DNA from: Candidatus Saccharimonadales bacterium
GTDB taxonomy: Bacteria; Patescibacteriota; Saccharimonadia; Saccharimonadales; JBBQAJ01
Assembly (NCBI GenBank): GCA_038206875.1
Contig: JBBRAK010000006.1
Span: 253 to 64,252 of the forward strand
Length of the DNA stretch: 64,000 nt
Direction: 5' to 3'
Shown: positions 6,503-35,446 of the stretch, in pieces
Numbering within the stretch: position 1 is the first letter of the stretch
How the letters are laid out: the number at the start of each line of letters is the position of its first letter
Position numbers and translations under genes: made by a program
Notes under the pieces: generated by a model
Told to the model about the DNA's origin: nothing
Database searches by the model: none
Seen by the model: only the letters and a program-made list of their open reading frames with translations

Positions 6503-7267
6503 CTACTTAACTATGAGGTGCGCCAGCTGTATGGAAATAGACACCACTACTACGCCCAGCAAGAGGAGTAAGGGCTGGAGTTCAAATAAACGTTTATTAG
6601 ACGCTTTTTCATGTATTTCTGGGATTAGGTCACTGGTAGCAATATAAAGCAAAAAACCCGCGCTTATCCCAATAAGTACACCCAGTGGCAATTTGCTCTG
6701 GCTACCAAGCGCAAATGTTATCACTGCCATTACAGTTGTTGCCAGTGCGCTGATTACATTCACCCATAAGACTTTGCTTCGACTCATCCCCTTGCCCAGT
6801 AGCAGGCCAAAGTCACCTATTTCTTGTGGTATTTCATGCGCGGCCACTGCAATGGTTGTAACAATTCCAGTAGGAATACTTATCAAAAAAGCGGCGGCGA
6901 TTGCTACTCCGTCTAGCGCATTATGGATTGTGTCTCCAACAACTATCAGACTGATGGTTGGATCACTATGTCCTTTTTCTTTGTGCTGATGGTGGTGGTG
7001 AAACCAATGCAAAAACCGTTCTGCAAAAAAGAATGTAACTAGCCCTATCATGGTTGACATGAGCACCGTGTTTACACTTGCCTCTTCCAGGCCGTCCTTT
7101 AACAAATCCATAAATACCGCCGCCAGAAGTGCCCCGGCCGCAAACGGAGTTGCATACGCTGCTAGATTTTCTGCAAGATTTTTGCGACTGAGCATCAGAA
7201 TTCCACCAATAAGTGAAAAAACTCCCCCAACCAATGAATAAAATATTACATACCAATAATTTGCCAT
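6503..7267 (-). CDS. ZIP family divalent metal transporter
   Basis: 254 aa and multi-TM. His-rich loop HWFHHHHQHKEKGH and ZIP signature HEIPQEIGDFGLL. Confidence 0.85.
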   Translation of the reverse strand: MANYWYVIFYSLVGGVFSLIGGILMLSRKNLAENLAAYATPFAAGALLAAVFMDLLKDGLEEASVNTVLMSTMIGLVTFFFAERFLHWFHHHHQHKEKGHSDPTISLIVVGDTIHNALDGVAIAAAFLISIPTGIVTTIAVAAHEIPQEIGDFGLLLGKGMSRSKVLWVNVISALATTVMAVITFALGSQSKLPLGVLIGISAGFLLYIATSDLIPEIHEKASNKRLFELQPLLLLLGVVVVSISIQLAHLIVK

Positions 7268-7483
7268 CGTTTCCTCATGTTTTCATTGATTAGTATATCT
7301 GACTTTCAGTTATATTCGTATATATACATAGACCCCAGTAAAAAACCAGGGTCTGTGGAAGCCTCACACTTCCACTTATAGCTTATGCCTTGATTTGACG
7401 TTTTGCAAGTCTGTGGTGACACTTCTCACCTCCATTAAACAGTAGGTTTTGCTGAGTGATTTTTATCACATTTTACATAGAAT

Positions 7484-8047
7484 TTATTTTTTCTGATTGG
7501 CTGTAGCAGTGCCGTCTGCATTTATGCAGAAGGGTTCTAGCTCTGCAGGAATGTTATATTTTTCTACAACCGAACAGTGTGGCAACGCACCATGCGTAGG
7601 ATCAACGCCATCTTTAAAAGGTGCAAAATATTCAGCTGGCTCTAACAGTTGCCATTTCCCTTGTTGTTTTACTGCCATAACGTAGCTAGATAGATTCCAC
7701 GAACAGCCGTAAGCGATTTTGGCGTATTGTTTTTTGGATACCTGGTACACGCCCCACAGCCCCACCCCCCTGGGTGTATCTGTACCACGATATGATTCAC
7801 AATCCCTTTTTGTGGCCAAATACTTACGTAAAGCTTTGGGGACTTTAACTGTATTATCCGCTGCCCATACAAGGTTTGATGGTCTACGACTACTCGACAA
7901 AAAACTTACCAAGCTGGCTCCGACTACCAAACCAAACAAGCCAGCCAATAATGGTATCGCAATACTAGCCAACTTCTTGCGGTCTTTTTTGGACAGTTTT
8001 AGTTTGAACCGTTTCTTCTTCGCCATGATAGTGCTTATGTATACCAT
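7484..8047 (-). CDS. hypothetical membrane-anchored protein
   Basis: 187-aa ORF with a basic N-terminus (MAKKKRFKLKLSKKDRKK), one TM helix and a Cys-containing extracytoplasmic domain. The start is possibly at 8026 (second Met). Confidence 0.5.
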   Translation of the reverse strand: MVYISTIMAKKKRFKLKLSKKDRKKLASIAIPLLAGLFGLVVGASLVSFLSSSRRPSNLVWAADNTVKVPKALRKYLATKRDCESYRGTDTPRGVGLWGVYQVSKKQYAKIAYGCSWNLSSYVMAVKQQGKWQLLEPAEYFAPFKDGVDPTHGALPHCSVVEKYNIPAELEPFCINADGTATANQKK

Positions 8048-8118
8048 AAAATCATATCATAGAAGTTGACGTAAATTGTTGCTATATATCCAGTTTAGAA
8101 TTAAACTTTAAGCAATTC

Positions 8119-9129
8119 ATGGGTGACTTTGTTCTGATTTTTCAAGTTTTATTTTTGCTAACTTTTTCGGCCATTTGCTCGGGGCTAAATGTCGGTATCA
8201 TGTCGCTCCAGCCGGCAGACCTGAAACGCAAAGCAAAACTTGGTGACAAACGGGCAAAGCGCGTATTGCCATATAGAAAAAACAGTCATTTAACTATATC
8301 TGGAATTGTTTTTACGAACGTTGCGTTGATTTCTGCCAACGCATTGGTTATAGATACACGATTAAATGGATTCGCTGCTGGGCTTTTAAGCACACTTTTA
8401 ATTGTGGTGTTTGCAGAAGTATTGCCTCAAGCATGGTTTTCTCGGTATGCACTTAGTTTTTGTTCTAGATTCGCATGGTTACTCAGATTAATGATAATCG
8501 TTAGCTACCCTATATCTAAGCCACTACAAATTTTGATGGACAAAATCTTGGGTCACGAACAAATGCTACTGCACACTAGGGGTGAACTTGGGATTTTGAT
8601 AGGCGAACACTTATTACCTGGCGCGAGCGAGCTTGACGAAGATGAAGTCGAAATCATGAAAGGCGCATTGAGTCTAAGTACAAAACAGGTAAGCAGTATA
8701 ATGACCCCAATTGAAGAAGTGTATTGGCTAACCCTTAATACCTTGGTCGATGGTGGTAAAATAAACGAAATAAAAGCAAACGGCTGGAGTCGAATCCCTA
8801 TTTTCGACATGGACGAGGCAAAGTTTCATGGGATTCTGCTCATGAAAGACTTGGTTGATGTAGATTTTGACGAAGAACCCATATATGTGGAAGATTTGCC
8901 GTTACATAAAAGCGCGGTCGTAAACGGACAAACAGCTCTGGACACTATGTTTCGGAAATTTATTGCTGCTAAAACTCATCTAATCCCCGTTGTTATTAAT
9001 AGCAAAATTATTGGAATCGTGACAATTGAGGACTTGTTGGAAGAAATTCTGGGTCATGAAATCGAAGACGAATCCGATACATCTAGAAATATTCAAAAAA
9101 ACGAGGCTGTTCATGAAAACGCCAGCTGA
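8119..9129 (+). CDS. CNNM/DUF21 transmembrane domain + CBS-pair protein (CorC/TlyC-like)
   Basis: 336 aa. A four-TM N-terminal DUF21-like region is followed by two CBS-like repeats (VSSIMTPIEEV ... IIGIVTIEDLLEEILG). Confidence 0.75.
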   Translation: MGDFVLIFQVLFLLTFSAICSGLNVGIMSLQPADLKRKAKLGDKRAKRVLPYRKNSHLTISGIVFTNVALISANALVIDTRLNGFAAGLLSTLLIVVFAEVLPQAWFSRYALSFCSRFAWLLRLMIIVSYPISKPLQILMDKILGHEQMLLHTRGELGILIGEHLLPGASELDEDEVEIMKGALSLSTKQVSSIMTPIEEVYWLTLNTLVDGGKINEIKANGWSRIPIFDMDEAKFHGILLMKDLVDVDFDEEPIYVEDLPLHKSAVVNGQTALDTMFRKFIAAKTHLIPVVINSKIIGIVTIEDLLEEILGHEIEDESDTSRNIQKNEAVHENAS

Positions 9130-10369
9130 ACAAATTCTCAAAACTTATGTAACGCTTACACTACTGTCAACTTTTGCGTCTTCGTTTATCTGGGGAATCA
9201 ATACTTTGTTTTTACTTGATGCGGGGCTCAGTATCACAGCTGCGTTTGCTGCGAACGCTTTTTTTACAGTTGGTCAAGTAATATTTGAAGTACCGACAGG
9301 AGTAGTGGCAGATACTTTGGGCAGACGGGCATCTTATTTGATGGGGTCGGCAACTTTGTTTATATCGACAATTCTCTACTTGTGGCTTTGGAATATACAT
9401 GGCCCTTTTTGGGCCTGGGCTCTAGTATCAATGCTACTCGGGCTAGGATTTACTTTTTTTTCTGGTGCGACCGAAGCTTGGTTAGTAGATGGGCTAAACC
9501 ACTATAATCACACAGGGACTCTGGAGCAGGCGTTTGCAAAAGGGCAAATTGCAAGTGGGGTTGCCATGCTGACTGGCACAGTAGCCGGAGGCGTAATCGC
9601 TCAATTTACAAATTTGGGGGTTCCATACGTTTTACGGGCGCTCATGCTAGTGATAACTTTTGTAGTGGCTTGGCAACTTATGCATGACGAAGGTTTTACG
9701 CCCAGAAAAACTGCCAATGTTTTTAATGAAATGAAAAAAATACTCAGCACTTCGTTGGATCACGGTTTGCGCAATCCTCCAGTCCGTTGGGTTATGTTAG
9801 CCGCTCCGTTTAGTGCTGGTGTTGGCTTTTATGCTTTTTACGCCATGCAACCTTACTTGCTTGAGTTGTATGGTAAATCCGGCTCTTATGCCCTAGCAGG
9901 ACTAGCGGCTGCAATTGTGGCTGGCGCCCAAGTGATAGGAGGCTACCTGGTTCCATATATACGCAAAATATTTCATAAACGAACTTCTGTATTGCTGAGC
10001 GGTGCAGTTCTAAGCTCTTTATCTCTAGTGGGCATTGGTATTACGGGAAGTTTTTGGGTTGCGCTGGCGGTTTTAGTAATATGGGCGATTGTGTTTGCCT
10101 CGGTTATGCCAGTTAGGCAAGCGTATTTGAACCATCTTATACCGTCTGCTCAAAGAGCTACTGTTTTGTCTTCTGATAATCTTTTGGGGTCAACGGGTGG
10201 TGTAGTAATCCAACCGGGCTTAGGCAAAGTTGCAGATGTTTGGGGCTATGGTGCATCTTACGTAGTCGGAGCAACTATTCAGCTTATGGCGTTGCCATTT
10301 TTGTTTTTGGCGAAAAAACAACATGTACCTGCCGACGACATGCCGACATCATCCAAATCTGTTAAATAA
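9113..10369 (+). CDS. MFS transporter
   Basis: 12-TM-like protein with the MFS loop motif GVVADTLGRRASYL. I moved the start to the ATG at 9113 (MKTPAEQ), which has GAGG 6 nt upstream. The longer ORF from 9026 overlaps the previous gene by 100 nt. Confidence 0.8.
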   Translation: MKTPAEQILKTYVTLTLLSTFASSFIWGINTLFLLDAGLSITAAFAANAFFTVGQVIFEVPTGVVADTLGRRASYLMGSATLFISTILYLWLWNIHGPFWAWALVSMLLGLGFTFFSGATEAWLVDGLNHYNHTGTLEQAFAKGQIASGVAMLTGTVAGGVIAQFTNLGVPYVLRALMLVITFVVAWQLMHDEGFTPRKTANVFNEMKKILSTSLDHGLRNPPVRWVMLAAPFSAGVGFYAFYAMQPYLLELYGKSGSYALAGLAAAIVAGAQVIGGYLVPYIRKIFHKRTSVLLSGAVLSSLSLVGIGITGSFWVALAVLVIWAIVFASVMPVRQAYLNHLIPSAQRATVLSSDNLLGSTGGVVIQPGLGKVADVWGYGASYVVGATIQLMALPFLFLAKKQHVPADDMPTSSKSVK

Positions 10370-10833: not shown

Positions 10834-11217
10834 TCACTCTACTATCAAAGTCCCGATATGGTCTGGGTTCAAATGATTATGAAAACCATTCGTCCCAACG
10901 CTGGAAACACTGAACGTTTCACTCTTGCCTGGAGCAAGTACGCTCTTGTTGAGCTCCTTGTCTTTTGTATGAGTCGGATGATCGTCTGAACTAAACTGAA
11001 GTGACTTAGAAGAATTATTTTTAACTCGTATGGTTGTGCCTGCCTTTACAGTCACTGTGGCCGGCTCGAACCCATTGTCTGTGTAAGTTATTGTATTTTC
11101 TGATGAAACTTCTACGCTAGATGCTGGCTCTGGTTTTTTGCCTGATCTTGATGTGATCACAAACGCACCAACAATTAGCACCAAAACTGCAACTACAATT
11201 ATTGTCAATTTCTTCAC
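10834..11217 (-). CDS. secreted/anchored cupredoxin-like domain protein with HPxH and FHxHLxP motifs
   Basis: 127 aa. GTG start preceded by GGGAGGG, with TGTATAAT further upstream. N-terminal TM anchor followed by a beta-sandwich-like domain (TVKAGTTIRVKNNS ... DDHPTH ... GFHNHLNPDHIGTLIVE). Paralogous to the C-terminal domain of the CyoD fusion at 26121. Confidence 0.65.
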   Translation of the reverse strand: MKKLTIIVVAVLVLIVGAFVITSRSGKKPEPASSVEVSSENTITYTDNGFEPATVTVKAGTTIRVKNNSSKSLQFSSDDHPTHTKDKELNKSVLAPGKSETFSVSSVGTNGFHNHLNPDHIGTLIVE

Positions 11218-16199: not shown

Positions 16200-16328
16200 A
16201 TGGAAAATTTTGCACATCACACCATTCTGCATACATTGAGTATGAGTCTGCCAGTCCTGGTGACAATGGTAGCAACATCGTTAATTACAATGCTTTTAGT
16301 TGTTATGAGAAGGCGCAATGAAAGTTGA
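16200..16328 (+). CDS. candidate 42-aa single-TM small protein
   Basis: Below the ORF-track cutoff. The ATG at 16200 lies 6 nt after TAAGGAGG. My translation is MENFAHHTILHTLSMSLPVLVTMVATSLITMLLVVMRRRNES. The TGA at 16326-16328 overlaps the sodC start by 11 nt. Confidence 0.4.
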   Translation: MENFAHHTILHTLSMSLPVLVTMVATSLITMLLVVMRRRNES

Positions 16329-16839
16329 TTTAGACGCTGGAAACAAGACAATCACCGCCAAGGCAACCGCGAAGGTTGTCGGCCCTGACATTGCGGGAGT
16401 TGCGGTTTTTACCGAATACGACGTGGACGGCTGGAAATATGTACATATCAAATTAACACTTCAGGGTGACCCCAAGGTATTGACTGCCGGAAAGCACGCT
16501 GTGCATATACACGAAAAGGCCGACTGCGAATGTGATGGCTTCAAATGTGCAGGTGGGCATTTTGACCCAGGTCCAAGCGGTAATAGTGACGCTGACGCCA
16601 ATCACGGCTACCATGCCGGAGACCTTCCTAGCATAAGCATAGACGAAAGCGGGGATGGTGAGCTACAAACAATAACTTCGCGCGTTACACTGTCGGATGG
16701 CCCAGTGTCAATTTTGCAACCTACTGAAGGCACATCACTCATGGTACACGGCAAACCGGACCCTTACACTCCTGGTGATACCGGTTCTGGCCACAGTGGC
16801 GGACCACGTCTTGCCTGTGGCAAAATCGAAGCTAGCTAA
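16318..16839 (+). CDS. sodC: Cu,Zn superoxide dismutase (no recognisable signal peptide)
   Basis: 173 aa with SodC metal-ligand blocks HAVHIHEKADCE, GGHFDPG, NHGYHAGDLPS and a C-terminal GGPRLACGKI. Confidence 0.85.
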   Translation: MKVDLDAGNKTITAKATAKVVGPDIAGVAVFTEYDVDGWKYVHIKLTLQGDPKVLTAGKHAVHIHEKADCECDGFKCAGGHFDPGPSGNSDADANHGYHAGDLPSISIDESGDGELQTITSRVTLSDGPVSILQPTEGTSLMVHGKPDPYTPGDTGSGHSGGPRLACGKIEAS

Positions 16840-24765: not shown

Positions 24766-25509
24766 ATGAAAATTTCAGAGGATAGGATTGTTATTGTAAC
24801 CGGTGCTAGCCAAGGTATCGGCAGAGCCATCGCCGTTCAACTCGCCCTAGCAGGCTATACAGTTCACGGAACCTACAGTTCTTCTTCTGAAAGTGCTGAA
24901 GAACTTGCAAAGAAACATAGCATAATTTTTCACAAAGTAGATTTTTCTCATAGAGAGCAAACACTTGAGATGGCAGAAATGCTGACGAAACTTAAACCAT
25001 ATGCGTTAATCAACAACGCTGGTGTCTGGGAGATGGACGATCTAAACAAACCAAATTTCGACAATTGGGATAAAACACTAGAGGTCAATCTAACCGCACC
25101 ATTAATTCTGTCTAGAATAGTAGGTAAGTCTATGGCTTCAGGTAGTAGCATTGTTAACATTTCTAGTACAGACGGCTTGACTGGAGCTTATGGTGGAATT
25201 AGTTATTCTGCCAGCAAGGCAGGTCTGATAAATGCTACCAAAAGCCTGGGTAACACTTTTGGCCCTCTCGGCGTACGCGTTAACGCCATTGCACCAGGCT
25301 GGATTGAAACGTCAATGGTTGGCAATGAGGCTACTGATAACGCCAAAGATACAAACCCCTTGAAGCGCACCGGAAAGCCAAGTGAGGTGGCAGATGTGGT
25401 TGAGTTTTTGATATCTGAAAAAGCCAGCTACATAAACGGTGAAACAATTGTTGTTGATGGTGGTGGCAATAACGTAGACTATGGACTTAAAAGAGAGTCG
25501 GGCTATTAG
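24766..25509 (+). CDS. SDR family oxidoreductase (FabG-like)
   Basis: 247 aa with TGASQGIGRAIA, NNAG, the catalytic YSASKAG, and PGWIET. Confidence 0.85.
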   Translation: MKISEDRIVIVTGASQGIGRAIAVQLALAGYTVHGTYSSSSESAEELAKKHSIIFHKVDFSHREQTLEMAEMLTKLKPYALINNAGVWEMDDLNKPNFDNWDKTLEVNLTAPLILSRIVGKSMASGSSIVNISSTDGLTGAYGGISYSASKAGLINATKSLGNTFGPLGVRVNAIAPGWIETSMVGNEATDNAKDTNPLKRTGKPSEVADVVEFLISEKASYINGETIVVDGGGNNVDYGLKRESGY

Positions 25510-25554
25510 ACAATAGAAATAGACAAAGCATAAATTGTCGATCTTGATTATTTC

Positions 25555-26070
25555 TTATGCTACTTGTTCAAAATCTATTGTGTGTTGCTCTTGAACCGAG
25601 TTGTCTGGATACGCACTTAAATTACTAATATCGACGCCACAGGCATCGATGAGTTTTAAATATTCCATCAATGAAGAATTTTCATCAATTAGTATGTCTA
25701 TATTTGTGCCGATTCGTTCTGCCGATTTGACTTTACCCTGAAGTAATTGTTCTTCGCCAATCGTAGCTGCATTAATTATGGTTTTTACGGTATTTGGATG
25801 TAGGTTTCTAATTCTACCGCGGTGCAATTCTTCGTCATGATCATACCAATATCCCTCTGCGGGTGATATCCATATTCCTAGCTGCAAATATGAAAATAAC
25901 TCGTCAAGCTCTGTTCTGGCATCTCCAGGAAGTATACCCAGTTTTAAACATTCCCGTGGATTTACTCCGACTGCTCTTTGGACCCTGGCAGACTCTGCGT
26001 TAAACGCAGTAGCCTCTCCATTAACATCTGGTACAAAAATCTCACTGGACTCGGGTAGTCTGTGTAGCAT
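25555..26070 (-). CDS. hypothetical protein downstream of the cyo operon
   Basis: 171-aa acidic soluble ORF, 50 nt downstream of cyoD on the same strand. No motif recognised. Confidence 0.45.
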   Translation of the reverse strand: MLHRLPESSEIFVPDVNGEATAFNAESARVQRAVGVNPRECLKLGILPGDARTELDELFSYLQLGIWISPAEGYWYDHDEELHRGRIRNLHPNTVKTIINAATIGEEQLLQGKVKSAERIGTNIDILIDENSSLMEYLKLIDACGVDISNLSAYPDNSVQEQHTIDFEQVA

Positions 26071-26120
26071 AAAACTACTCTAAAACTTCTCAAGTATTTT
26101 GTCAATATTATTGATTCCAG

Positions 26121-26816
26121 CTAAAAATTAGTTACAGTGAAGGTTCCGGTTGTTTCTGGTTTTAAATGGTCGTGAAAGTTATATGTTCCGGGTTCCGAGA
26201 GGGTAATTGATTTACTGCGCCCAGGGCGTACTAGTACTTCATACTCCCCAGCATAAGATTCATGCGCAGGATGTGTTCCAAATGATATTTCTACTGCCTG
26301 CTTATCGTCATTGATAAAAGTCAGTGTGTCGCATTTACCAGCCACAGTGCGAAGTGGGTCTGCCTGAGCGTTCTTTATTCTAACTTGATGGTTTGATTTT
26401 TGACCTTGACATGCACCAGTAACTTCGCCACCTATTTGATAGATCCCTTCGTCACCAACCAGTTTCTTTGTTTGGTTAGTTGGTGACATATTGTAGTGCA
26501 GATTGTTAATAATCATTATTGAACCGCCAACTACGATCCCTACAACACCTATGGTTGCTATAAAGAAAAATAAATTCCAGTTTGGCTTTGGCCCACGCCC
26601 CAAGTGTAAAAAAAACGTCACCTGAATAATCATCTGTATTACAGCAAATCCGACAATTGCTAAAAGTAATTGTGTGCCAGAGATAGTTTGGTTTACTACA
26701 AGGTAGTAAGGAATAAACGTAAATAACAGTGATAATATGAACCCTATCACGTAAGTCGACACATCCCCGCGTTCTGGCTTTGGATTGTTGCTTGTTTTTA
26801 GCATATTGTCACTCAT
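26121..26816 (-). CDS. cyoD: cytochrome o/bo3-type quinol oxidase subunit IV fused to a C-terminal cupredoxin-like domain
   Basis: Start set to the ATG at 26816 (MSDNMLKTS), which has an ATGA overlap with the cyoC stop. The N-terminal ~110 aa have three TM helices in CyoD style (YVIGFILSLLFTFIPYYLV, FFLHLG). The C-terminal ~120 aa carry THPAH and NFHDHLKPETTGTFTV, paralogous to 10834..11217. Confidence 0.7.
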   Translation of the reverse strand: MSDNMLKTSNNPKPERGDVSTYVIGFILSLLFTFIPYYLVVNQTISGTQLLLAIVGFAVIQMIIQVTFFLHLGRGPKPNWNLFFFIATIGVVGIVVGGSIMIINNLHYNMSPTNQTKKLVGDEGIYQIGGEVTGACQGQKSNHQVRIKNAQADPLRTVAGKCDTLTFINDDKQAVEISFGTHPAHESYAGEYEVLVRPGRSKSITLSEPGTYNFHDHLKPETTGTFTVTNF

Positions 26817-27403
26817 ACAAAAGCCCTCAAATAAACTATAGTAAAGATAAATATCCATATTATGTCTAGGAAGTGCCAGAACAGGCTGAGCATTGCCAAT
26901 TTTCGAACCAACGGAGCGTTAAGTCCCCTTTTCATGACATAAACCATTGTGGTTGCCATCCATAATAGCCCAGATGTTATATGCAATCCATGCGTGCCAA
27001 CCAGCACAAAGAATGACGACAGAAAGGCATTTGTCTGCAAAGTGTGACCCGCGTGAATAAACTCGGCAAACTCTTTCATTTCCAGACTTAAAAACGCTAG
27101 CCCGAGTGCAAAAGTAATACCAAGCCATATGAGAGTCTGGATTTTGTTGCCACGGCGTACAGCTAACATGGCGATTCCGACCGTAAAACTACTGGTTAGA
27201 AGAATCAATGTTTCGGTTAGAGCTAGCGGTAAGCTGAAAAGATCATATCCAGTTTCACCACCAAGTGTGCTGTTATGCAACACGGAATACACAGCGAACA
27301 GGACGGAAAACATCAAAAGGTCTGTCATCAAATATATCCAGAATCCAAACATTGCCCTATCTGTGGCTTCAGCTTCGTGATCTGTTTTTACCATTTTTGC
27401 CAC
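26813..27403 (-). CDS. cyoC: quinol oxidase subunit III
   Basis: 196 aa with 5 TM helices. Heme-copper oxidase subunit III pattern including LFWHFLDIIWIFIFT. Confidence 0.85.
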   Translation of the reverse strand: MAKMVKTDHEAEATDRAMFGFWIYLMTDLLMFSVLFAVYSVLHNSTLGGETGYDLFSLPLALTETLILLTSSFTVGIAMLAVRRGNKIQTLIWLGITFALGLAFLSLEMKEFAEFIHAGHTLQTNAFLSSFFVLVGTHGLHITSGLLWMATTMVYVMKRGLNAPLVRKLAMLSLFWHFLDIIWIFIFTIVYLRAFV

Positions 27404-29478
27404 CGTTTGTTTTTAATTACATCAAGCCCAAACTTCAGCACAACTGTGATTAACTCAGCTAGCCCCATATCTTCATCTGAGCCAAGTTCAATATTAGTTT
27501 GTTTAGCCTTATCTTTTTTGAGCCGATCTTCTTCAAGTTTTTTCACTTCAGCGGCAGATATTATGTACTCAGGATGTTCGTCGTAACCTCGTCTAACAAA
27601 AACAATAAGAATGCCTACCATAGATACCACAGCCAGCCAGTTTATGTTCCAGACAAACGCAAAACCAACCAAAAAAGCGAAACCTGCAATAAAAATCCCA
27701 GCAGAAATATTTTTGGGAGTGTGAATATCTTCAAAAGCAGGTTTTGGGATTGCTGAGTGTTTAATTTCCCAAAAAGCATCCCGAGTTTTTACTTGCGGGA
27801 TAGTAGTGTAATTGTAAAACTGGGGGGGTGAAGCTGTAGACCACTCTAGGGACCGGCCATCCCAAGGGTCTCCAGTCGTGTCACGCAATCGATTTTTTTG
27901 GATAAAACTAGCCAAAATCTGAGCAATCTGCAACGCTACACCAACAGCAATAACTAGCCCCCCAATAAACATCATTATAAACAAAGGTTGCCATCCTGTT
28001 GAAGCATCGTAATGGTCAAGCCTCCTGGATGCCCCCATAAACCCTAAAACATACATTGGTATAAACGACATGCAAAATCCAATCATCCAACACCAAAATG
28101 CATACCTACCTATCCGCTCGTTGAGCTTGATACCAGTAAATTTTGGGAACCAGTACGACAGTGCGCAAAAGATACCGAACAGTACCCCCCCTATGACGGT
28201 TGAGTGAAAATGAGCTACAAGGAACAAACTATTGTGAAGCTGGAAATCGACTGGCGGAACAGCCAACATGACACCACTTATACCACCAATTGCAAAAACG
28301 GCAACAAACCCAAGAAACCATAACATTGGTGTATCGAACCGTATGCGTCCTTTGTGCATTGTGGCAATCCAGTTGAAAACAAGAACAGTTGTTGGGATTG
28401 CAATTAACATTGTCATAGCACCAAAAAAGGCATTTACGTTTGCGCCAGCACCCATTGTAAAAAAGTGATGCAACCACACAGAAAGCGCCAGTGTTGATAC
28501 GCCGATCATACCAAATACAGCCGATTTGTAGCTAGCAATTGGTTTGCGACTAAATGTTGAAACCACCTCAGAAAACACCCCAAAAGCAGGCAAAATTAAC
28601 ACATATACTTCCGGATGCCCCCACATCCAGATGAGATTGGTATACAACATTTGGTTACCCCCACCAAAAGATGTAAAGAAGTTTGCACCCAAATAACGAT
28701 CAAAAAATAGTAAAAATAGCGTTGCGGTCAGTAACGGGAAAACAGTGACCGCCATAATCATGCTACACAGTGAACCCCAGGTAAATAATGGCATTTTCAT
28801 TAGCTTCATCCCTGGCGCACGCATTTTCAAAATAGTCATTATAAAATTTATTGCTCCGAGAGTAGTTCCGATGCCAGAAATTTGTAGGCTCCATATCCAG
28901 TAATCCACCCCAACCCCTGGACTAAATGCCCTTTCAGAAAGCGGAGCAACCGCAAGCCAACCCGTTGCGGCGTATTCTCCACCAAAGAGGAAAAACATGT
29001 TTACCATCACAACACCTGCGACAAATAACCAAAAGCCCAAAGTATTCATAAACGGCGATGCCAAGTCACGCGCTCCAATCTGCAAGGGCACTATGTAATT
29101 TATGAGCCCGAAAACAAAAGCCATAGCAACAAAGAAAACCATAATATTTCCGTGGGCGGTAAAGATTTGTTGGAAGTGATTAGAAGATAAATAGCCATGC
29201 GAAGCGCCTGATGACATTGCTTGCTGGAGCCAGATCATAATTGCATCGAGTCCACCACGCAAGAGCATAAAACCGCCTACGATAAAGTACATAATTCCAA
29301 TTTTTTTTGGATCTACCGAAGTCAGCCACTCATTCCAAAGCCATTTCCACCTTTTCATTCGAGTAATCACTAAAATTGCGGTCAAGGCTAAAGTAATAAA
29401 TGCCAGTGATCCTCCAAGAGTGAACCACTCATGAGGAAGTGCATTCCAGTCTAGTTTGCCAAGTATAAATTCTTTCAT
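27388..29478 (-). CDS. cyoB: quinol oxidase subunit I (heme-copper oxidase)
   Basis: 696 aa with WMWGHPEVYVLILPAFG, WLHHFFTMG and VAHFHSTVIGG. Charged C-terminal extension. TAATG overlap with cyoA. Confidence 0.95.
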   Translation of the reverse strand: MKEFILGKLDWNALPHEWFTLGGSLAFITLALTAILVITRMKRWKWLWNEWLTSVDPKKIGIMYFIVGGFMLLRGGLDAIMIWLQQAMSSGASHGYLSSNHFQQIFTAHGNIMVFFVAMAFVFGLINYIVPLQIGARDLASPFMNTLGFWLFVAGVVMVNMFFLFGGEYAATGWLAVAPLSERAFSPGVGVDYWIWSLQISGIGTTLGAINFIMTILKMRAPGMKLMKMPLFTWGSLCSMIMAVTVFPLLTATLFLLFFDRYLGANFFTSFGGGNQMLYTNLIWMWGHPEVYVLILPAFGVFSEVVSTFSRKPIASYKSAVFGMIGVSTLALSVWLHHFFTMGAGANVNAFFGAMTMLIAIPTTVLVFNWIATMHKGRIRFDTPMLWFLGFVAVFAIGGISGVMLAVPPVDFQLHNSLFLVAHFHSTVIGGVLFGIFCALSYWFPKFTGIKLNERIGRYAFWCWMIGFCMSFIPMYVLGFMGASRRLDHYDASTGWQPLFIMMFIGGLVIAVGVALQIAQILASFIQKNRLRDTTGDPWDGRSLEWSTASPPQFYNYTTIPQVKTRDAFWEIKHSAIPKPAFEDIHTPKNISAGIFIAGFAFLVGFAFVWNINWLAVVSMVGILIVFVRRGYDEHPEYIISAAEVKKLEEDRLKKDKAKQTNIELGSDEDMGLAELITVVLKFGLDVIKNKRWQKW

Positions 29479-30383
29479 TAGTGATGCCCGTGGTCATTTG
29501 ATGACCCTAAATATTTACTTATAACTCTGTCGTAAAGGCTGTTGTCATATGCCGAGTAAAATACGACTGGGTTATATTCGCTTGGTTCTAACAATTTATC
29601 ATAGTTTGCAATATTCAATACTTCAGTTGATTGCCTCACATCTTGCACCCAAAGATCAAACTTTTCTGAACTACTAACACGTGTGGTAAATTTCATCCCC
29701 GCAAAACCGGAACCATTTATTTCGGGTGTACTACCCGGATAATCGCCGATAGTTTGAGAAATCAGGTTTAGCCTATTCACATGGCTTGTCATCGAATATA
29801 ATTGACCGCCAAGATTTGGTATCCAAAAAGAGCTCATGGGAGCTTCATCAGCAGTTAGCTCAAAAACTACGGGTGTGTCGACAGGTATTTGGACAAAGTT
29901 TACAGTAGCAATATTTTGCTCAGGATATATAAACAACCACTTCCAGCGCATAGATATAACTTGAATTACAATCGGCTTGGCATCTGATGCAATCGCTCGC
30001 TGAGGGATTAGTCTATGAGTAGCAGTCCACATAACAACACCAAGACCAAATATAATTACTGTTGGCAGACTCCACATAAATGAAACTAAATATTTACTTC
30101 GCGAGGTCTCTGATGTGTGCTTTAGTTTGGTGTTTGATTCCCTATATTTCCATGCCGTAAAATATACAATAAAAAGTGTTGGGACTGCTATTGCGAAAAG
30201 GATGACGAAGATAACCATCATCAAATGGAGCTGTTGTTGTGCTATTGCGCCCTTGGGGTTAAATAACGCAATGTTTTTCCCCAAAACAAAATATCTAATC
30301 AGTAAAAACAAGTCCGTCAGTGCCATAAATATCAACAGAGCTAGCCATCCTGAATGGAGCTTTTTTTTGCGTATTTTTACCAT
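29478..30383 (-). CDS. cyoA: quinol oxidase subunit II (no CuA site visible)
   Basis: 301 aa with two N-terminal TM helices and a cupredoxin domain. I see no CxExC/H CuA motif, which is consistent with a quinol-type rather than a cytochrome c-type oxidase. Confidence 0.85.
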   Translation of the reverse strand: MVKIRKKKLHSGWLALLIFMALTDLFLLIRYFVLGKNIALFNPKGAIAQQQLHLMMVIFVILFAIAVPTLFIVYFTAWKYRESNTKLKHTSETSRSKYLVSFMWSLPTVIIFGLGVVMWTATHRLIPQRAIASDAKPIVIQVISMRWKWLFIYPEQNIATVNFVQIPVDTPVVFELTADEAPMSSFWIPNLGGQLYSMTSHVNRLNLISQTIGDYPGSTPEINGSGFAGMKFTTRVSSSEKFDLWVQDVRQSTEVLNIANYDKLLEPSEYNPVVFYSAYDNSLYDRVISKYLGSSNDHGHH

Positions 30384-30564
30384 GAAAAATAATCTTTCAC
30401 AGAATAACCATAATCATCATATTTACTATAACATGACCCTCACCAGCCTTGTACAGATATGGGGTCAGCTTCTAAAAGCAAGAATTGTAAAATGCTCACG
30501 TACTATCAAGAGCGCAGAGGTAACAAGCTGATTGACATAAGCGTAAGCGACGTGGTTGACTTAA

Positions 30565-31146
30565 GTGGTAATGGCTAAACCAAAATCAATTACTTTTGTT
30601 GATTGGTTACAAACTGGGCTTATTCGGACATGCCGAGTGCACTTTGTTTTTGTAGCTGTGTATATTGTTTATATTATAGCGTCAGATGCCACCAAGCTAA
30701 TCCAGCCGGATGTGGTTTTGCGCAGATGGACAATGAACGTACTACTTTTAATCGGGGTAGTGTCCGTTTGGTATTTTGCCAGAAGCAATGTACGGAAAAG
30801 CTCCTATTACCGCTTGTTATTTTCAATCATCATATCTCTTGATATAGCCGTAGCAACATTCAATATATACACCCAAAGAGGCATGGCTAGTAGAGCTGTG
30901 ATTCTATACTGTATCCCTATCTTAGTTTCAGCCTTACTTTTGAGCCGTACTGCAGTTTTCCTAACAGCAACTTTGTGTGCTGCAGCATATTCTCTGGCAG
31001 CAGTAAAATATTTCGTTGATTATTTCAACGAAGGCTATAAAGCCGAATTGTACATAGAAGTAGCTTTTTATGTAGCGATATTTTTTATATTGGCCGGGAT
31101 ATTATCCATTTTGATCCGGTTCAACAAAAGCGAAGTTCATCTGTAA
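30565..31146 (+). CDS. hypothetical 5-TM membrane protein between cyoA and cyoE
   Basis: 193-aa ORF (GTG at 30565, ATG at 30571) with five hydrophobic segments. No motif recognised. Confidence 0.5.
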   Translation: MVMAKPKSITFVDWLQTGLIRTCRVHFVFVAVYIVYIIASDATKLIQPDVVLRRWTMNVLLLIGVVSVWYFARSNVRKSSYYRLLFSIIISLDIAVATFNIYTQRGMASRAVILYCIPILVSALLLSRTAVFLTATLCAAAYSLAAVKYFVDYFNEGYKAELYIEVAFYVAIFFILAGILSILIRFNKSEVHL

Positions 31147-31252
31147 ATTCAGCCCAGTTGATGATATAGTTGTATCCATTGACTAAGGGGTTGAAAAGAT
31201 AATTTTAAGCGCCACAATTAAAAGATATTTTTCTCTTACAAAACCGGGCGTA

Positions 31253-32071
31253 TTGTTTGCAAATGCGATTACAGCTGGAGCCGGATTTTTGTTTGCAAGT
31301 AAAGGTGAAATTGACTATTGGCTACTGCTTGCACTTTTTTTGGGGTCTAGTTTAATTATAGCTTCAGCCTGTGTTTTAAATAATTTTTTGGACCAAGACA
31401 TAGATTCAAAAATGGTTCGCACCAAAAATCGCGCTATGGTAAAAAAATCTATTCCTAATGTTAACGCGGTGATTTTTTCTGCGACGCTGGGGATATTGGG
31501 CCTAGTAACTCTTGTATTTTATACAAACAATCTGGTAGTTTTGCTTGGGATTATTGGGTTCGTTGACTACGTCGTACTATACGGTATGTTTTCCAAGAGA
31601 CTATCTTGGCACGGAACACTGGTCGGAAGTATTTCTGGGGCTGTGCCAATAATATCTGGATATGTTGCTGTGACTGGCCGAATAGATATTGTTTCAATGC
31701 TATTGTTTGTAGTGCTGTTTTTTTGGCAAATGCCAGAGTTTTATTCGATTGCAGTTTATCGAAAAAATGAGTACAAATCCGCAAATATTCCAGTTATTTC
31801 AGTTGTCAAAGGGATACCCTACACCCAAAAACTCATAGTTGTTTATACAATCCTATTTGTAGTAGCTACGCTTTTGATTCCAGTTTTTGGAAAGACGAGT
31901 ATTTTATACGCTTTTGTTATGTCAATTCTCGGACTACGCTGGATAGTGCTTGGCTGGGCATCTTTTAGCTCATCACAAGTAGATGATTGGGCAAAAGCAA
32001 TGTTTCGATTTTCGTTATATATTTTGCTTGTTTTTAGTTTACTGATTTCGGTTGACGCTTGGCTACCATAA
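31253..32071 (+). CDS. cyoE: protoheme IX farnesyltransferase (heme O synthase); true start probably upstream
   Basis: UbiA-family pattern NNFLDQDIDSKMVRTKNRA. The track start is a TTG at 31253. The same frame is open back to 31187 and encodes IKRYFSLTKPGV, the conserved CyoE N-terminal block, with no ATG, GTG or TTG in between. Confidence 0.85.
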   Translation: MFANAITAGAGFLFASKGEIDYWLLLALFLGSSLIIASACVLNNFLDQDIDSKMVRTKNRAMVKKSIPNVNAVIFSATLGILGLVTLVFYTNNLVVLLGIIGFVDYVVLYGMFSKRLSWHGTLVGSISGAVPIISGYVAVTGRIDIVSMLLFVVLFFWQMPEFYSIAVYRKNEYKSANIPVISVVKGIPYTQKLIVVYTILFVVATLLIPVFGKTSILYAFVMSILGLRWIVLGWASFSSSQVDDWAKAMFRFSLYILLVFSLLISVDAWLP

Positions 32072-32074
32072 ATA

Positions 32075-32228
32075 GGTCTTTCGTACATCGGCGTTGATAA
32101 CAGGATGCAGATAGTTGAAGCGAAAACTGTCTAGCTTATGGAGGGGTAACTGTAGCTACATTGAGATGAGATAGACAGTTTGTAGCCAGCTATCTGTGGT
32201 CTGTTGCTACGGTGATGTGCGAAAGTCC
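32075..32228 (+). ncRNA. candidate structured RNA: 154-nt long imperfect hairpin (6S-like architecture, unclassified)
   Basis: Hand-paired stems are 32075-32089 with 32214-32228 (14 of 15 pairs, one G:U), CAGATAG/CTATCTG, and AACTGTCTA/TAGACAGTT, enclosing a 38-nt apex. Three G:U pairs occur on the plus strand and would be A:C on the minus strand. Non-coding spacer between cyoE and a small membrane-protein gene. Confidence 0.45.
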
Positions 32229-32253
32229 TATAATTTAGTGTTATAATCTTGTT

Positions 32254-32514
32254 ATGGTTTTAGCTACACATATCATAATTGCGCTAACAAGTTTGATTTA
32301 TACTACGCTCATATATATTTCACCTTCAAAATCCCGACTGAATATTGCATACACTTTGATGGCCTCAACTCTCTTAAGCGGTACATACTTGGTTGTAAGC
32401 ACTGGATCGCCGTTAATTAGCGCGTGTATTTCTGGACTAGCATATACTTCGGTCGTTTCGATTGGCCTGGTTGCAACGCGCAAAAAGCTAGCTACTGCTT
32501 CTAGCCAACTATAG
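32254..32514 (+). CDS. small hypothetical 3-TM membrane protein
   Basis: 86-aa hydrophobic ORF downstream of the candidate RNA. No motif recognised. Confidence 0.45.
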   Translation: MVLATHIIIALTSLIYTTLIYISPSKSRLNIAYTLMASTLLSGTYLVVSTGSPLISACISGLAYTSVVSIGLVATRKKLATASSQL

Positions 32515-32515
32515 T

Positions 32516-34174
32516 TTAAAAATGTTCTCTTATGTGACTGATGCTGAAGTCCCAGTTTGCGTCGGTTTTTTTGTGTGGATTAAAAATGTTGTCCGGATCA
32601 AAGATGTTTTTCAGCTTTTTGAAAATTAACATCATGTCCGTGCCGTACATCTGTTTCAACCAAGGACCGCGGATCATACCGTCGTTATGCTCCCCACTCA
32701 AACTGCCGCCATATTTTAAAACCAAAGCATTTACTTCACGCATACAAGGCTCTAGTTTCTTGCGCTCAGATTGAAGCTCAATATTCATAAGTGGGATTAC
32801 ATGGAAGTTGCCGTCTCCCATGTGCCCTGCAACAGTCGCCAATAGTTTATATTTGTTAATAATAACTCGAAGTTCTGGCAAGAATTTCGGCAGATTTTTA
32901 GGAGGAACTACTAAATCATCAATGAATGGGGCGGTGTGTTTGTCTTTGACTTTATTTCTAAGAAGGTTGAAACTTTCCCTTCGCATGATCCAAAATTTTT
33001 TAGCTTTTTGTTCTGTTTCATCTTCTTCGTATGATTCTTTGCTGTCAAATGGGTGCAAATCAAGCATAAGATTGTGAACTTTTTCCGCAACCCCCTCAGG
33101 TGTATCGCTATTAAATTCCACAAGTAGTACCATCTTTGGCACACCCCTGAACAACATGAGAGCGTCTGGAATTAATTGAAAAGCAAGTTTTATCATACCC
33201 CACCATCCTAGCGTTTTGTGAAAAAAGAAGAACAGCTTGAGACTAAGGATTAGCGTATAATTATCAAAGCCTTCGAAAGTTGCTGGTTTATGTTCAAGCA
33301 CGTTATTAATAATTTCACCCAACTGGCTTAAGTCACGTAAAAATACAACTAACGTTCCAGAGTGCTTTGGTGCTGGAACAAGCCTGAAGTGTATGTCAGT
33401 TATCATTCCGAGCGTTCCCTGAGAACCAATTATGATTTGGTTTAGGTCAAATATTCCGGTTTCGCGGTCCCATACGTTCCATAAGTGGTATGCCGTGGAA
33501 TCTTTGGACACGTTTGGTTTGGCTTCTTTTATTACCTCATAGTTTGACTCTATTAGTTCATAAACTTGTTTATACAAATTACCCTCATAATCATTTTGGG
33601 CTATCTTGTTATCCAACTCTACTTTGTTAAGAGGCTTTACAGAATACTCATTTCCGTCTGCAAAAACCACACTAAGTTCAGTCACAAATTTTTCTGTTTT
33701 GCCAAATTCTAACGATTTTTCACCGCCGGAATTGTTAGCTACCATTCCACCAATTGTGCATAAATCTCTAGAGGCCGGATAGCTCGGCATTAGCGCTTGA
33801 TTTTTGAGTGTTTCAGTTTCAAAATCTCTATAAAAAACTCCGGGCTGTGCATGAGCTGAGCGAGAATCTACTTGAATTATTTTGTTAAAATGCTTCGTCA
33901 TATCCATAATTACAGATTGATTAATGGCTCCCCCACTCATGTCAGTCCCCGCTGAACGGGCCGTAATAGAAACTTGCTGATTATGTTCGTTCTTGCTTTT
34001 GCGAACGTAATTTACGGCTTTTTGAACATCCGCGCTGTCTTGTGGGTATATCACCACCTGGGGCATGAGCTCAAACATACTTGCGTCATGACTATACAAG
34101 TCTCTTGTGGTAACAGTGTCGTCGATTTCACCAACAAACCCAGCTTCTTTTAAAGCTTTTTTGTGATTATCCAT
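32516..34174 (-). CDS. FAD-linked oxidase (GlcD / D-lactate dehydrogenase-like)
   Basis: 552 aa. N-terminal FAD-binding PCMH-type region (ITARSAGTDMSGGAIN, TIGGMVANNSGG) and C-terminal GGSLSGEHNDGMIRG. Confidence 0.8.
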   Translation of the reverse strand: MDNHKKALKEAGFVGEIDDTVTTRDLYSHDASMFELMPQVVIYPQDSADVQKAVNYVRKSKNEHNQQVSITARSAGTDMSGGAINQSVIMDMTKHFNKIIQVDSRSAHAQPGVFYRDFETETLKNQALMPSYPASRDLCTIGGMVANNSGGEKSLEFGKTEKFVTELSVVFADGNEYSVKPLNKVELDNKIAQNDYEGNLYKQVYELIESNYEVIKEAKPNVSKDSTAYHLWNVWDRETGIFDLNQIIIGSQGTLGMITDIHFRLVPAPKHSGTLVVFLRDLSQLGEIINNVLEHKPATFEGFDNYTLILSLKLFFFFHKTLGWWGMIKLAFQLIPDALMLFRGVPKMVLLVEFNSDTPEGVAEKVHNLMLDLHPFDSKESYEEDETEQKAKKFWIMRRESFNLLRNKVKDKHTAPFIDDLVVPPKNLPKFLPELRVIINKYKLLATVAGHMGDGNFHVIPLMNIELQSERKKLEPCMREVNALVLKYGGSLSGEHNDGMIRGPWLKQMYGTDMMLIFKKLKNIFDPDNIFNPHKKTDANWDFSISHIREHF

Positions 34175-34255
34175 ATTGCCCTAGCTTAACATAAGTCATA
34201 AGCGTTATGATACAATCAGTCTTAGATAACTTAAGGCACGTAAAACAGATATAAT

Positions 34256-35446
34256 ATGAAAAAACTCAGAGTAGTAATTGTCGGAGGAGGATTTGGTGGA
34301 ATCAAAACTGCTCTAGAACTAGCCGATGATGCTCGGTTTCATGTAACTCTTATATCTGATCATACTAGCTTTCGCTACTATCCAACCCTGTACAGAACAG
34401 CAACGGGTGGCAGGAAAATTATTTCCTCGATTCCGCTCGAAGAAATATTTTCGGGAAAAAATGTGCATATTTTGATTGACCGTGCAGTCGGACTGGACAG
34501 AAAATCGCGTACGTTAAAAACAAAAATTGGACATATAGTTGGCTATGAAGCTTTGGTACTTGCTATTGGAACGTACACAAACTACTTTGGTATTCAAGGG
34601 CTCAAAGAACTTTCATTTGGCATAAAAACTAACGCAGATGCTCAGGAATTAAAAGCACATCTGCACAAACAACTTATCGAAAAACATGAGCCAGATTTGA
34701 ATTATGTGGTCGTTGGAGGCGGTCCTTCTGGAATTGAGCTAGCTGGCGTATTGCCTGCCTATCTAAAGCAAATTGCTCGAAAGCACCGACTAAAAAAACA
34801 GAAAATTCATGTGGACTTGGTGGAAGCAGCGCCACGATTGGTGCCGCGAATGCCTAAAGATGTTTCCAGACGAATTACCCGTCAACTGCGTAAACTAGGA
34901 GTTAGGATTTACCTCAATACAGCCGTGCAAGCTCAAACGGCTGACACTTTACTAATCAACAACAAATCGATAAGAAGTCACACAGTAATCTGGACAGCCG
35001 GAGTATCGAACAACAATTTTTTTGATAATCAAAAATTCCAACTCGCTAAAAATGGCAAAGTGCGTGTTGATCAATTTCTGCAGAGTGAAATTGGAATCTA
35101 TGTGATTGGTGACAATGCAGACACCCCATATAGCGGCATGGCACAGACCGCACTGTACGATGGCAAATTTGTTGCGGCCAATTTGAAACTTCTGGCTAAT
35201 CATGAGTCACCGAAGCCTTATTCCGCCAAAAAGCCTGTTTATGTTTTTCCAGCTGGTCATAAATGGGCTGCAGTGTTGTGGGGCAAAGTTCGATTATATG
35301 GAAAAAAGGGATGGATTTTACGTTCTTTGGCAGATTTATTAGCGTATCATGACTATGAACCTTGGAAGATAGCTACTCGACGATGGGCAGCTGAGAATGA
35401 CAACGAAGAAGTATGTACTTTTTGTTCCGACAACCTAAATCAATAA
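34256..35446 (+). CDS. ndh: type II NADH dehydrogenase (NDH-2)-like FAD/NAD(P) oxidoreductase
   Basis: 396 aa with two Rossmann motifs, VVIVGGGFGGIKTA and VVVGGGPSGIELAG, and IYVIGDNA. Confidence 0.8.
   Translation: MKKLRVVIVGGGFGGIKTALELADDARFHVTLISDHTSFRYYPTLYRTATGGRKIISSIPLEEIFSGKNVHILIDRAVGLDRKSRTLKTKIGHIVGYEALVLAIGTYTNYFGIQGLKELSFGIKTNADAQELKAHLHKQLIEKHEPDLNYVVVGGGPSGIELAGVLPAYLKQIARKHRLKKQKIHVDLVEAAPRLVPRMPKDVSRRITRQLRKLGVRIYLNTAVQAQTADTLLINNKSIRSHTVIWTAGVSNNNFFDNQKFQLAKNGKVRVDQFLQSEIGIYVIGDNADTPYSGMAQTALYDGKFVAANLKLLANHESPKPYSAKKPVYVFPAGHKWAAVLWGKVRLYGKKGWILRSLADLLAYHDYEPWKIATRRWAAENDNEEVCTFCSDNLNQ

Follow-up and report, generated by a model that had tools for sequence, protein, structure and literature searches.

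We examined a 64,000-nt stretch of a Candidatus Saccharimonadales contig (JBBRAK010000006.1), referred to in its entirety as the window, in which a minus-strand gene joins cyoD, encoding subunit IV of a bo3-type ubiquinol oxidase, to a cupredoxin-fold domain. All window scans described here cover these 64 kb, and the genome beyond them lies outside their view. Along the minus strand the order is cyoA, cyoB, cyoC and then the fusion, which is the last gene of cyoABCD, with a cyoE-like gene on the plus strand. The fusion and the other oxidase genes are as follows:

26121..26816, minus strand: cyoD-cupredoxin fusion gene, a continuous open reading frame (ORF) of 231 amino acids (aa) plus stop, with CyoD and Cupredoxin_1 hidden Markov model (HMM) matches
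26813..27403, minus strand: cyoC (subunit III), TIGR02842, 233 bits
27388..29478, minus strand: cyoB (subunit I), TIGR02843, 936 bits
29478..30383, minus strand: cyoA (subunit II), TIGR01433, NF007816 and COX_ARM matches
31253..32071, plus strand: cyoE-like heme O synthase (UbiA family), PF01040, E=3.5e-49

The fusion protein begins MSDNML, and its ATG overlaps the cyoC stop codon (ATGA) and is preceded a few bases away by GAGGG, a junction of the kind typical of translational coupling. CyoB, with 54% identity to its E. coli counterpart, retains R71, D75, H98, and Q101 of the quinol site, and the cyoE-like gene is 45-56% identical to the cyoE-position gene of related loci.

Within the fusion protein we distinguish three parts and a pair of cysteines, for which conservation was read from an alignment of 30 fusions (A1) that also served as AlphaFold2 input:

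26487..26816, minus strand: CyoD part, residues 1-110, with three transmembrane (TM) helices, delimited by HMMs, AlphaFold2, and hydropathy
26415..26486, minus strand: linker, residues 111-134 (MSPxDQTKKLxNDEGIYQIGGExTG), strongly conserved in the 30-fusion alignment
26124..26414, minus strand: cupredoxin-fold domain, residues 135-231, assigned by PF13473, AlphaFold2, and Foldseek
26409..26411, minus strand: Cys136, first half of the Cys pair, invariant in the 30-fusion alignment
26331..26333, minus strand: Cys162 (in a C-D-T-L-T-F motif), second half of the Cys pair, invariant in the same alignment

The CyoD part shares with E. coli CyoD its three TM helices and its operon position after cyoC, and to these the fusion adds the linker and the cupredoxin domain. 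TIGR02847 matches residues 18-110 (90.0 bits against a cutoff of 81.45), PF03626 matches the protein at 49.5 bits against 28.9 (E=5.7e-13), and E. coli CyoD (109 aa) aligns end to end with residues 1-110 at 37% identity. The extension starts exactly where E. coli CyoD ends and runs for ~120 further residues, giving a protein that departs from the usual CyoD size and architecture (~110 aa, single domain), with 231 aa against 109 aa in E. coli and 123 aa in unfused Saccharibacterial CyoD.

AlphaFold2 placed helices at residues 19-42, 48-72, and 80-105, followed by an eight-strand domain with a predicted local distance difference test (pLDDT) score of ~90 over residues 140-231, and gave pLDDT <50 over residues 107-134 when the fusion was folded alone. 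Because conservation in the linker is strong although the model shows it as disordered in the protein alone, it may dock on the outer face of the oxidase. The match of residues 139-228 to PF13473 (Cupredoxin_1) is marginal (29.2 bits against a gathering score of 27) but is corroborated by the structure model and by Foldseek, both of which give a cupredoxin fold. Searched against the PDB with the fused domain and with a free-standing paralogue from the same window (see below), Foldseek returned amicyanin, plastocyanin, pseudoazurin, and the Nitrosopumilus purple cupredoxin, as well as the EfeO Cup domain, a B. anthracis Cupredoxin_1 protein, and multicopper oxidase and NirK domains, at a probability of 1.0 and with target-normalized TM-scores of 0.62-0.78 for single-domain cupredoxins. 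For the fused domain the score is ~0.7 with amicyanin, plastocyanin, the EfeO Cup domain, and the B. anthracis protein.

We judged the sidedness of the CyoD part by hydropathy, by Lys plus Arg (K+R) counts under the positive-inside rule, and by the E. coli topology. Three hydropathy peaks and K+R counts of 1.6 for the N-terminal tail, 0.2 for loop 1, and 2.3 for loop 2 point to an N-in/C-out arrangement, in agreement with the topology that Chepuri and Gennis reportedly described for E. coli CyoD in 1990. C136 and C162, the sole cysteines of the fusion, probably form a disulfide, and the pair is retained in 388 of 391 fused and free-standing sequences. Taken with the TM anchors of the free-standing relatives and the position of the added domain at the C-terminus of a three-TM CyoD, these patterns indicate that the domain should face outward. 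An earlier reading made from the sequence alone (the sequence-only reading) had described a CyoD prolonged by a soluble domain of ~120 aa, folded as a cupredoxin-like sandwich and lying on the outer face of the membrane. HMMs, the E. coli alignment, and the fold model agree on the first two of these elements, and the third is upheld by sequence rules and homology.

The same reading had raised the concern that a frameshift or assembly join might have merged two separate genes. Both parts do occur as separate genes in sister lineages, which would fit such a join or a gene-calling error. Against this, the ORF is unbroken and its start is coupled to cyoC, and a contig from an independent Logan assembly carries a gene call for an identical protein of 231 aa. 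A homologue search with the fusion protein gave 667 matches, of which the 120 listed are close relatives (61-72% identical); all 120 are full length at 212-244 aa with the same layout and come from NCBI, JGI, ENA, and Logan, and those listed with a named source are all Candidatus Saccharibacteria, Saccharimonadales, or Patescibacteria. At least 20 fused genes also lie inside cyo operons on metagenome contigs. The fusion is genuine and the artefact explanation, to which we leave virtually no chance, is effectively refuted.

Histidine motifs of the added domain

The fused domain has the strand order of single-domain blue copper proteins, and its C-terminal loop is as long as that of amicyanin. 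Profile and pairwise alignments to amicyanin, plastocyanin, and multicopper oxidase nevertheless agree that all four ligands of the type 1 (T1) copper site are replaced. Amicyanin His53 corresponds to Val175 here and to a conserved Arg in relatives, Cys92 to D216 (with H-D-H aligned on Y-H-C-T), the loop His95 to Lys/Gln, and Met98 to Thr/Val. The absence of the blue-copper Cys/His/Met set noted in the sequence-only reading is thereby located at each of the four positions, and the peptides quoted there, with HPxH and FH(D/N)H motifs shared between the fusion and the 127-aa paralogue, are present in both proteins. Blue copper proteins are soluble, whereas the fused domain is membrane-tethered and has an extra Cys pair and two new motifs:

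26262..26273, minus strand: H182-P-A-H185 motif, with H185 invariant and H182 and P183 at least 90% conserved (30 fusions)
26166..26174, minus strand: H215-D216-H217 motif, with D216 invariant and H215 and H217 at least 90% conserved (30 fusions)

The HPxH motif lies ~7 residues past the canonical T1 His position, and the Y-x-G motif that follows it (Y188-x-G190) is separated from the second His motif by a spacing of 24 residues that is fixed in the family. The four histidines with this spacing are found in 127 of ~165 representatives at 50% identity even though mean column identity is only ~31%, and this conservation at such divergence argues for a functional site in the His-bearing members. 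In three of the 30 fusions (P0076, P0109, and P0120) H182, H215, and H217 are jointly changed while H185 is kept, a pattern to be expected if the three act as a unit. We infer that H182, H185, H215, and H217 form one site and that the metal bound there would be copper.

In multicopper oxidases and NirK, the histidines flanking the T1 Cys bind type-2/type-3 (T2/T3) copper. Domains of these proteins (for example 9cck, 6hbe) are structural matches; in a weak phmmer alignment (E=0.005 for the full sequence, ~9 for the domain) to domain 1 of 9cck, a multicopper oxidase of Nitrosopumilus, H-D-H falls on H-C-H and H-P-A-H on H-G-T-H. Because H-D-H aligns on a motif whose flanking histidines bind type-2/type-3 copper, the histidines probably lie on the T2/T3-type face of the sandwich and not at its T1 pole. 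Unlike the multicopper oxidases and NirK, the fused domain is single, without the T1 Cys and without the second HxH-bearing domain that completes the trinuclear or inter-subunit site. The contact of subunits IV and II in the bo3 dimer (PMC10037687) is no more than a lead toward a neighboring subunit that might complete such a site. Two further Cupredoxin_1 members are matched in structure by both window proteins, the N-terminal Cup domain of EfeO (7wgu) and an uncharacterized B. anthracis protein with Cu (4hcf) or Zn (4hcg) bound, neither of which is linked to a heme-copper oxidase.

Free-standing relatives and the window paralogue

An exhaustive HMMER search with residues 110-231 as query returned 742 clusters at 50% identity (E up to 1e-3), the best 150 of which were inspected. 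Most of them measure 120-150 aa and have a single TM helix at the N-terminus, and the free-standing proteins among them share the Cys pair, an F-G-x-H-x-x-H-x-x-Y-x-G motif, and H-D-H; this Cys-pair family is ~40% identical to the fused domain, and an NCBIfam scan gave no model matching the free-standing proteins. Two long multi-repeat matches (P0198 and P0286) were rejected as low-complexity false positives, and P0330 was rejected as a relative since it is a string of ordinary T1 cupredoxins.

To place these genes in context we used a degenerate-DNA scan of metagenomes for the double His motif, which gave at least 120 loci (20 fused and 100 free-standing are listed) and which, as its pattern demands the histidines, does not allow the frequency of His-less forms to be read from it. 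A cyo gene is the immediate neighbor, at 12-1169 bp, in 27 of the 100 listed free-standing loci: 11 of these genes directly precede cyoA in the same orientation, 9 are transcribed divergently from it, 5 adjoin cyoE, and 2 adjoin cyoD. Among listed loci with at least 1.5 kb of flank on both sides the proportion is 12 of 27, and by our estimate adjacency would arise by chance well under 1% of the time in a genome of ~1000 genes. In five loci (L001-L005) the free-standing gene lies ~300 bp after cyoABCDE, and the CyoD encoded there is normal, at 123 aa. L001/L004 belongs to a metagenome-assembled genome labelled Candidatus Saccharibacteria, and L004 and L006 carry the labels Saccharibacteria or Saccharimonadales. 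A profile search of genomes with a narrower alignment of the free-standing form gave 3 GTDB loci only, with Saccharibacteria-centered sampling.

CyoB identities to the window CyoB are mostly 70-79% (range 62-79%) in fused loci and ~50-65% in most unfused loci, and on this difference we distinguish two cyo lineages that carry the module in different forms, fused in one and separate in the other. Fusion in one lineage and persistent adjacency in another point to a functional partnership with the oxidase, and the domain is probably an accessory module of the Saccharibacterial quinol oxidase.

Two other arrangements were seen among the listed free-standing loci. In 15 of the 100 (L009, L014, L015, L016, L045, L053, L057, L063, L066, L075, L080, L115, L122, L124, and L126) the cupredoxin gene is paired with a divergently transcribed gene for a ~229-aa multi-His membrane protein, which has several conserved histidines in predicted TM segments and no Pfam match, and is absent from the window; it may be a different partner for the cupredoxin, such as a membrane protein that binds heme or metal. 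In L074 (1472..2658) a free cupredoxin gene is convergent to a fused-clade cyo operon (CyoB 73% identical to that of the window), with ~400 bp between CyoD and the free gene, and this operon may carry a His-less fused domain together with a separate His-bearing copy.

The window itself encodes one free-standing relative, and a six-frame motif scan of the window found no third copy of the motif:

10834..11217, minus strand: distant free-standing paralogue, 127 aa, N-terminal TM anchor plus cupredoxin domain, PF13473, 46.5 bits

Over 76 aa the paralogue shares 28% identity with the fused domain (E=6e-11), its domain is modeled by AlphaFold2 with pLDDT 96-98, and its motifs read HPTH...FHNH, with H80, P81, H83, H113, and H115 invariant in 49 relatives. 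In the sequence-only reading this protein was the free-standing counterpart of the fused domain. Its Cupredoxin_1 assignment and the shared motifs stand, but it is a distant member without the Cys pair, and the Cys-pair family described above is closer to the fused domain (~40% against 28%). A comparison of the neighborhoods in three other genomes (L130-L132) showed no conserved link between the paralogue and cyo genes. At 6503..10369 the window holds genes for a major facilitator superfamily (MFS) transporter, a CNNM/CBS protein, and a ZIP-family metal transporter next to the paralogue; a link of the paralogue to metal transport was dropped, as this neighborhood is not kept in L130-L132. In those loci the paralogue-type gene has an unannotated ORF of 177-208 aa before it or overlapping it. 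Two relatives of the paralogue are far longer (P0291, 959 aa; P0325, 484 aa), with two HPTH...YH(D/N)H cupredoxins flanking a large Cys/His-rich center.

Putative role in copper supply and rival explanations

The reading that we favor, while giving it somewhat less than an even chance, is that subunit IV of this bo3 oxidase carries an outward-facing cupredoxin accessory module that binds Cu(II) and supplies the CuB site. In place of the lost blue-copper site the domain has H182, H185, H215, and H217, and D216 stands where the T1 Cys was. This putative His site would bind Cu(II) at the outer membrane face, CyoD and the conserved linker would hold the domain against the oxidase, and the copper captured by the domain would be passed to subunit I for CuB, in an architecture analogous to that of Cox11. 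Like Cox11/CtaG, the module combines a membrane anchor with an outward beta-sandwich and is encoded with oxidase genes. The likeness is one of analogy and not of membership, and Pfam and NCBIfam scans gave no match of the fused or free-standing proteins to a Cox11/CtaG family. Cox11 uses Cys thiolates to bind Cu(I); in the module, His and Asp are the candidate ligands. Bo3-type quinol oxidases occur in organisms without Cox11, and E. coli CyoD is said to have been implicated in CuB binding by Saiki et al. in 1996. We favor CuB supply because of this reported link, because the copper route to CuB in bo3 oxidases is described as unknown (PMC10588857), and because Cox11 has the same layout of anchor and beta-domain facing the periplasm (PMC6696091). 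The more specific proposal that the module is the missing His-based Cu(II) insertion factor for bo3 CuB, a functional analogue of Cox11 with its site on the T2/T3 face, we advance only as a doubtful possibility.

Several observations weigh against the proposed supply of copper to CuB. The 9cck alignment is statistically weak, and the clustering of the four histidines into one site is read from sequence. To our knowledge, the established Cu(I) chaperones (Cox11, Sco, and PCuAC) use Cys or Met ligands and not His only. The absence of Sco, Cox11, PCuAC, and HMA families from the ~55 window ORFs with Pfam results counts in favor of the proposed supply, but other copper chaperones may be encoded elsewhere in the genome, outside the 64 kb. 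Many free-standing genes do not adjoin cyo, including those in 7 of the 8 listed loci that have 3 kb or more of flank on each side. Finally, divergent fusions (P0187, P0194, P0199, P0201, P0186, P0188, and P0191) and fragments have lost most of the histidines, and since such fusions persist, the domain must, on this comparison, also have a role that is independent of them.

These divergent fusions keep the Cys pair, mostly D216, the Y-x-G motif, and the conserved linker, which speaks for a structural role. The domain might be a non-metal, Ig-like beta-sandwich that stabilizes the oxidase at its outer face or shields it there, or that touches the envelope or a host cell, with the histidines a clade-specific addition. 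What is conserved across all fusions is the Cys pair, D216, Y188-x-G190, and the linker, and not the histidines, three or four of which are missing from several divergent members; the linker, conserved yet disordered alone, suggests docking, and subunit IV forms part of an interface with subunit II in the bo3 dimer of E. coli (PMC10037687). The near invariance of the four histidines and their 24-residue spacing in the window clade and in the large free-standing family is hard to reconcile with this explanation, which we regard as rather unlikely. A third group of roles would make the domain an independent extracytoplasmic metalloenzyme or metal buffer, acting in superoxide or peroxide detoxification, ferroxidase-like chemistry, or copper sequestration. 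An HxxH plus HxH arrangement on a disulfide-bearing Greek-key sandwich recalls the sites of Cu-only or Cu,Zn superoxide dismutases (SODs), the EfeO Cup domain, with a proposed ferroxidase-like function, is among the best structural matches, and many free-standing members lie away from cyo, including those paired with the multi-His membrane protein. The window, however, already encodes a bona fide Cu/Zn SOD, and the fusion to CyoD and the repeated adjacency to cyoA or cyoE tie the function to the oxidase, so that a role of this kind seems improbable.

The sequence-only reading had offered electron entry as an alternative to copper delivery, in an organism not expected to make its own quinone. 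Redox-active copper in the domain would then take electrons from an external or host-derived donor and pass them to the oxidase, bypassing quinol. The cupredoxin fold fits such a redox relay, and there is a precedent in AcoP of Acidithiobacillus ferrooxidans, a membrane-anchored cupredoxin that partners a heme-copper oxidase and is matched by Foldseek (7z3f). AcoP differs in having a Cys-containing green T1 site, in working with cytochrome c oxidase, and in being unfused. In the E. coli structure subunit II and the quinol site lie on one side of subunit I and subunit IV on the other, which counts against electron entry here. Soil candidate phyla radiation (CPR) genomes do carry cyo operons without quinone biosynthesis genes (PMC8407418), as a donor other than quinol would suit. 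Nevertheless, none of the T1 ligands is left, and type-2-like sites built of His alone carry electrons poorly over long range; the quinol-site residues of CyoB are intact, and NDH-2-like and D-lactate-dehydrogenase-like genes flank the operon here and in related loci, an ordinary quinone-reducing input. This part of the earlier reading is disfavored on these grounds, and we consider electron entry unlikely to a marked degree, the least likely of the rival functional roles.

Both parts of the fusion belong to known families, while the fusion and the cyo-linked free form are undescribed in the literature that we found. The earlier statement that no CyoD fusion of this kind has been characterized agrees with our literature search, which found no paper combining Saccharibacteria, ubiquinol oxidase, and cupredoxin, none on a cupredoxin fused to subunit IV, and no description of the free-standing family or its cyo link. 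The fusion is already visible in databases as a Pfam domain pair, annotated plainly as subunit IV. Two studies of these organisms make no mention of an extended CyoD, and the soil CPR cyo operon is treated as a plain copy of that of E. coli (PMC8407418, PMC11659515). In the tiny genomes of Saccharibacteria, a domain that is kept fused or adjoining is probably needed for the enzyme to work, and it is a compact candidate for an oxidase-linked copper-handling part. It also illustrates how the metal site of a cupredoxin fold seems to have shifted away from the T1 position onto the T2/T3-type face, and the finding refines the view of aerobic metabolism in soil CPR bacteria. If the domain is only structural, the finding would amount to a modest point of annotation.

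Neighboring genes

The oxidase genes lie in a compact respiration cluster that spans 24766..35446 and includes the following additional features, to which we add a copper-dependent gene from elsewhere in the window:

24766..25509: short-chain dehydrogenase/reductase (SDR)
25555..26070: unannotated 171-aa ORF
30565..31146: PilS-like six-TM membrane protein
32516..34174: flavin adenine dinucleotide (FAD)-linked D-lactate-dehydrogenase-like oxidase
34256..35446: NDH-2-like flavoprotein
16318..16839, plus strand: Cu/Zn SOD, PF00080, 98 bits, with no obvious signal peptide in the called ORF

Homologues of the FAD-linked oxidase and of NDH-2 recur beside cupredoxin and cyo genes in eight loci (L008, L017, L029, L030, L036, L065, L071, and L093), and the gene content of the cluster suggests a compact quinone-dependent chain. 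The complex is present in over half of environmental Saccharibacteria (PMC11659515). The Cu/Zn SOD adds a second copper-dependent protein to this small genome, and an 81%-identical SodC gene adjoins the fused cyoD-cupredoxin gene in L107.

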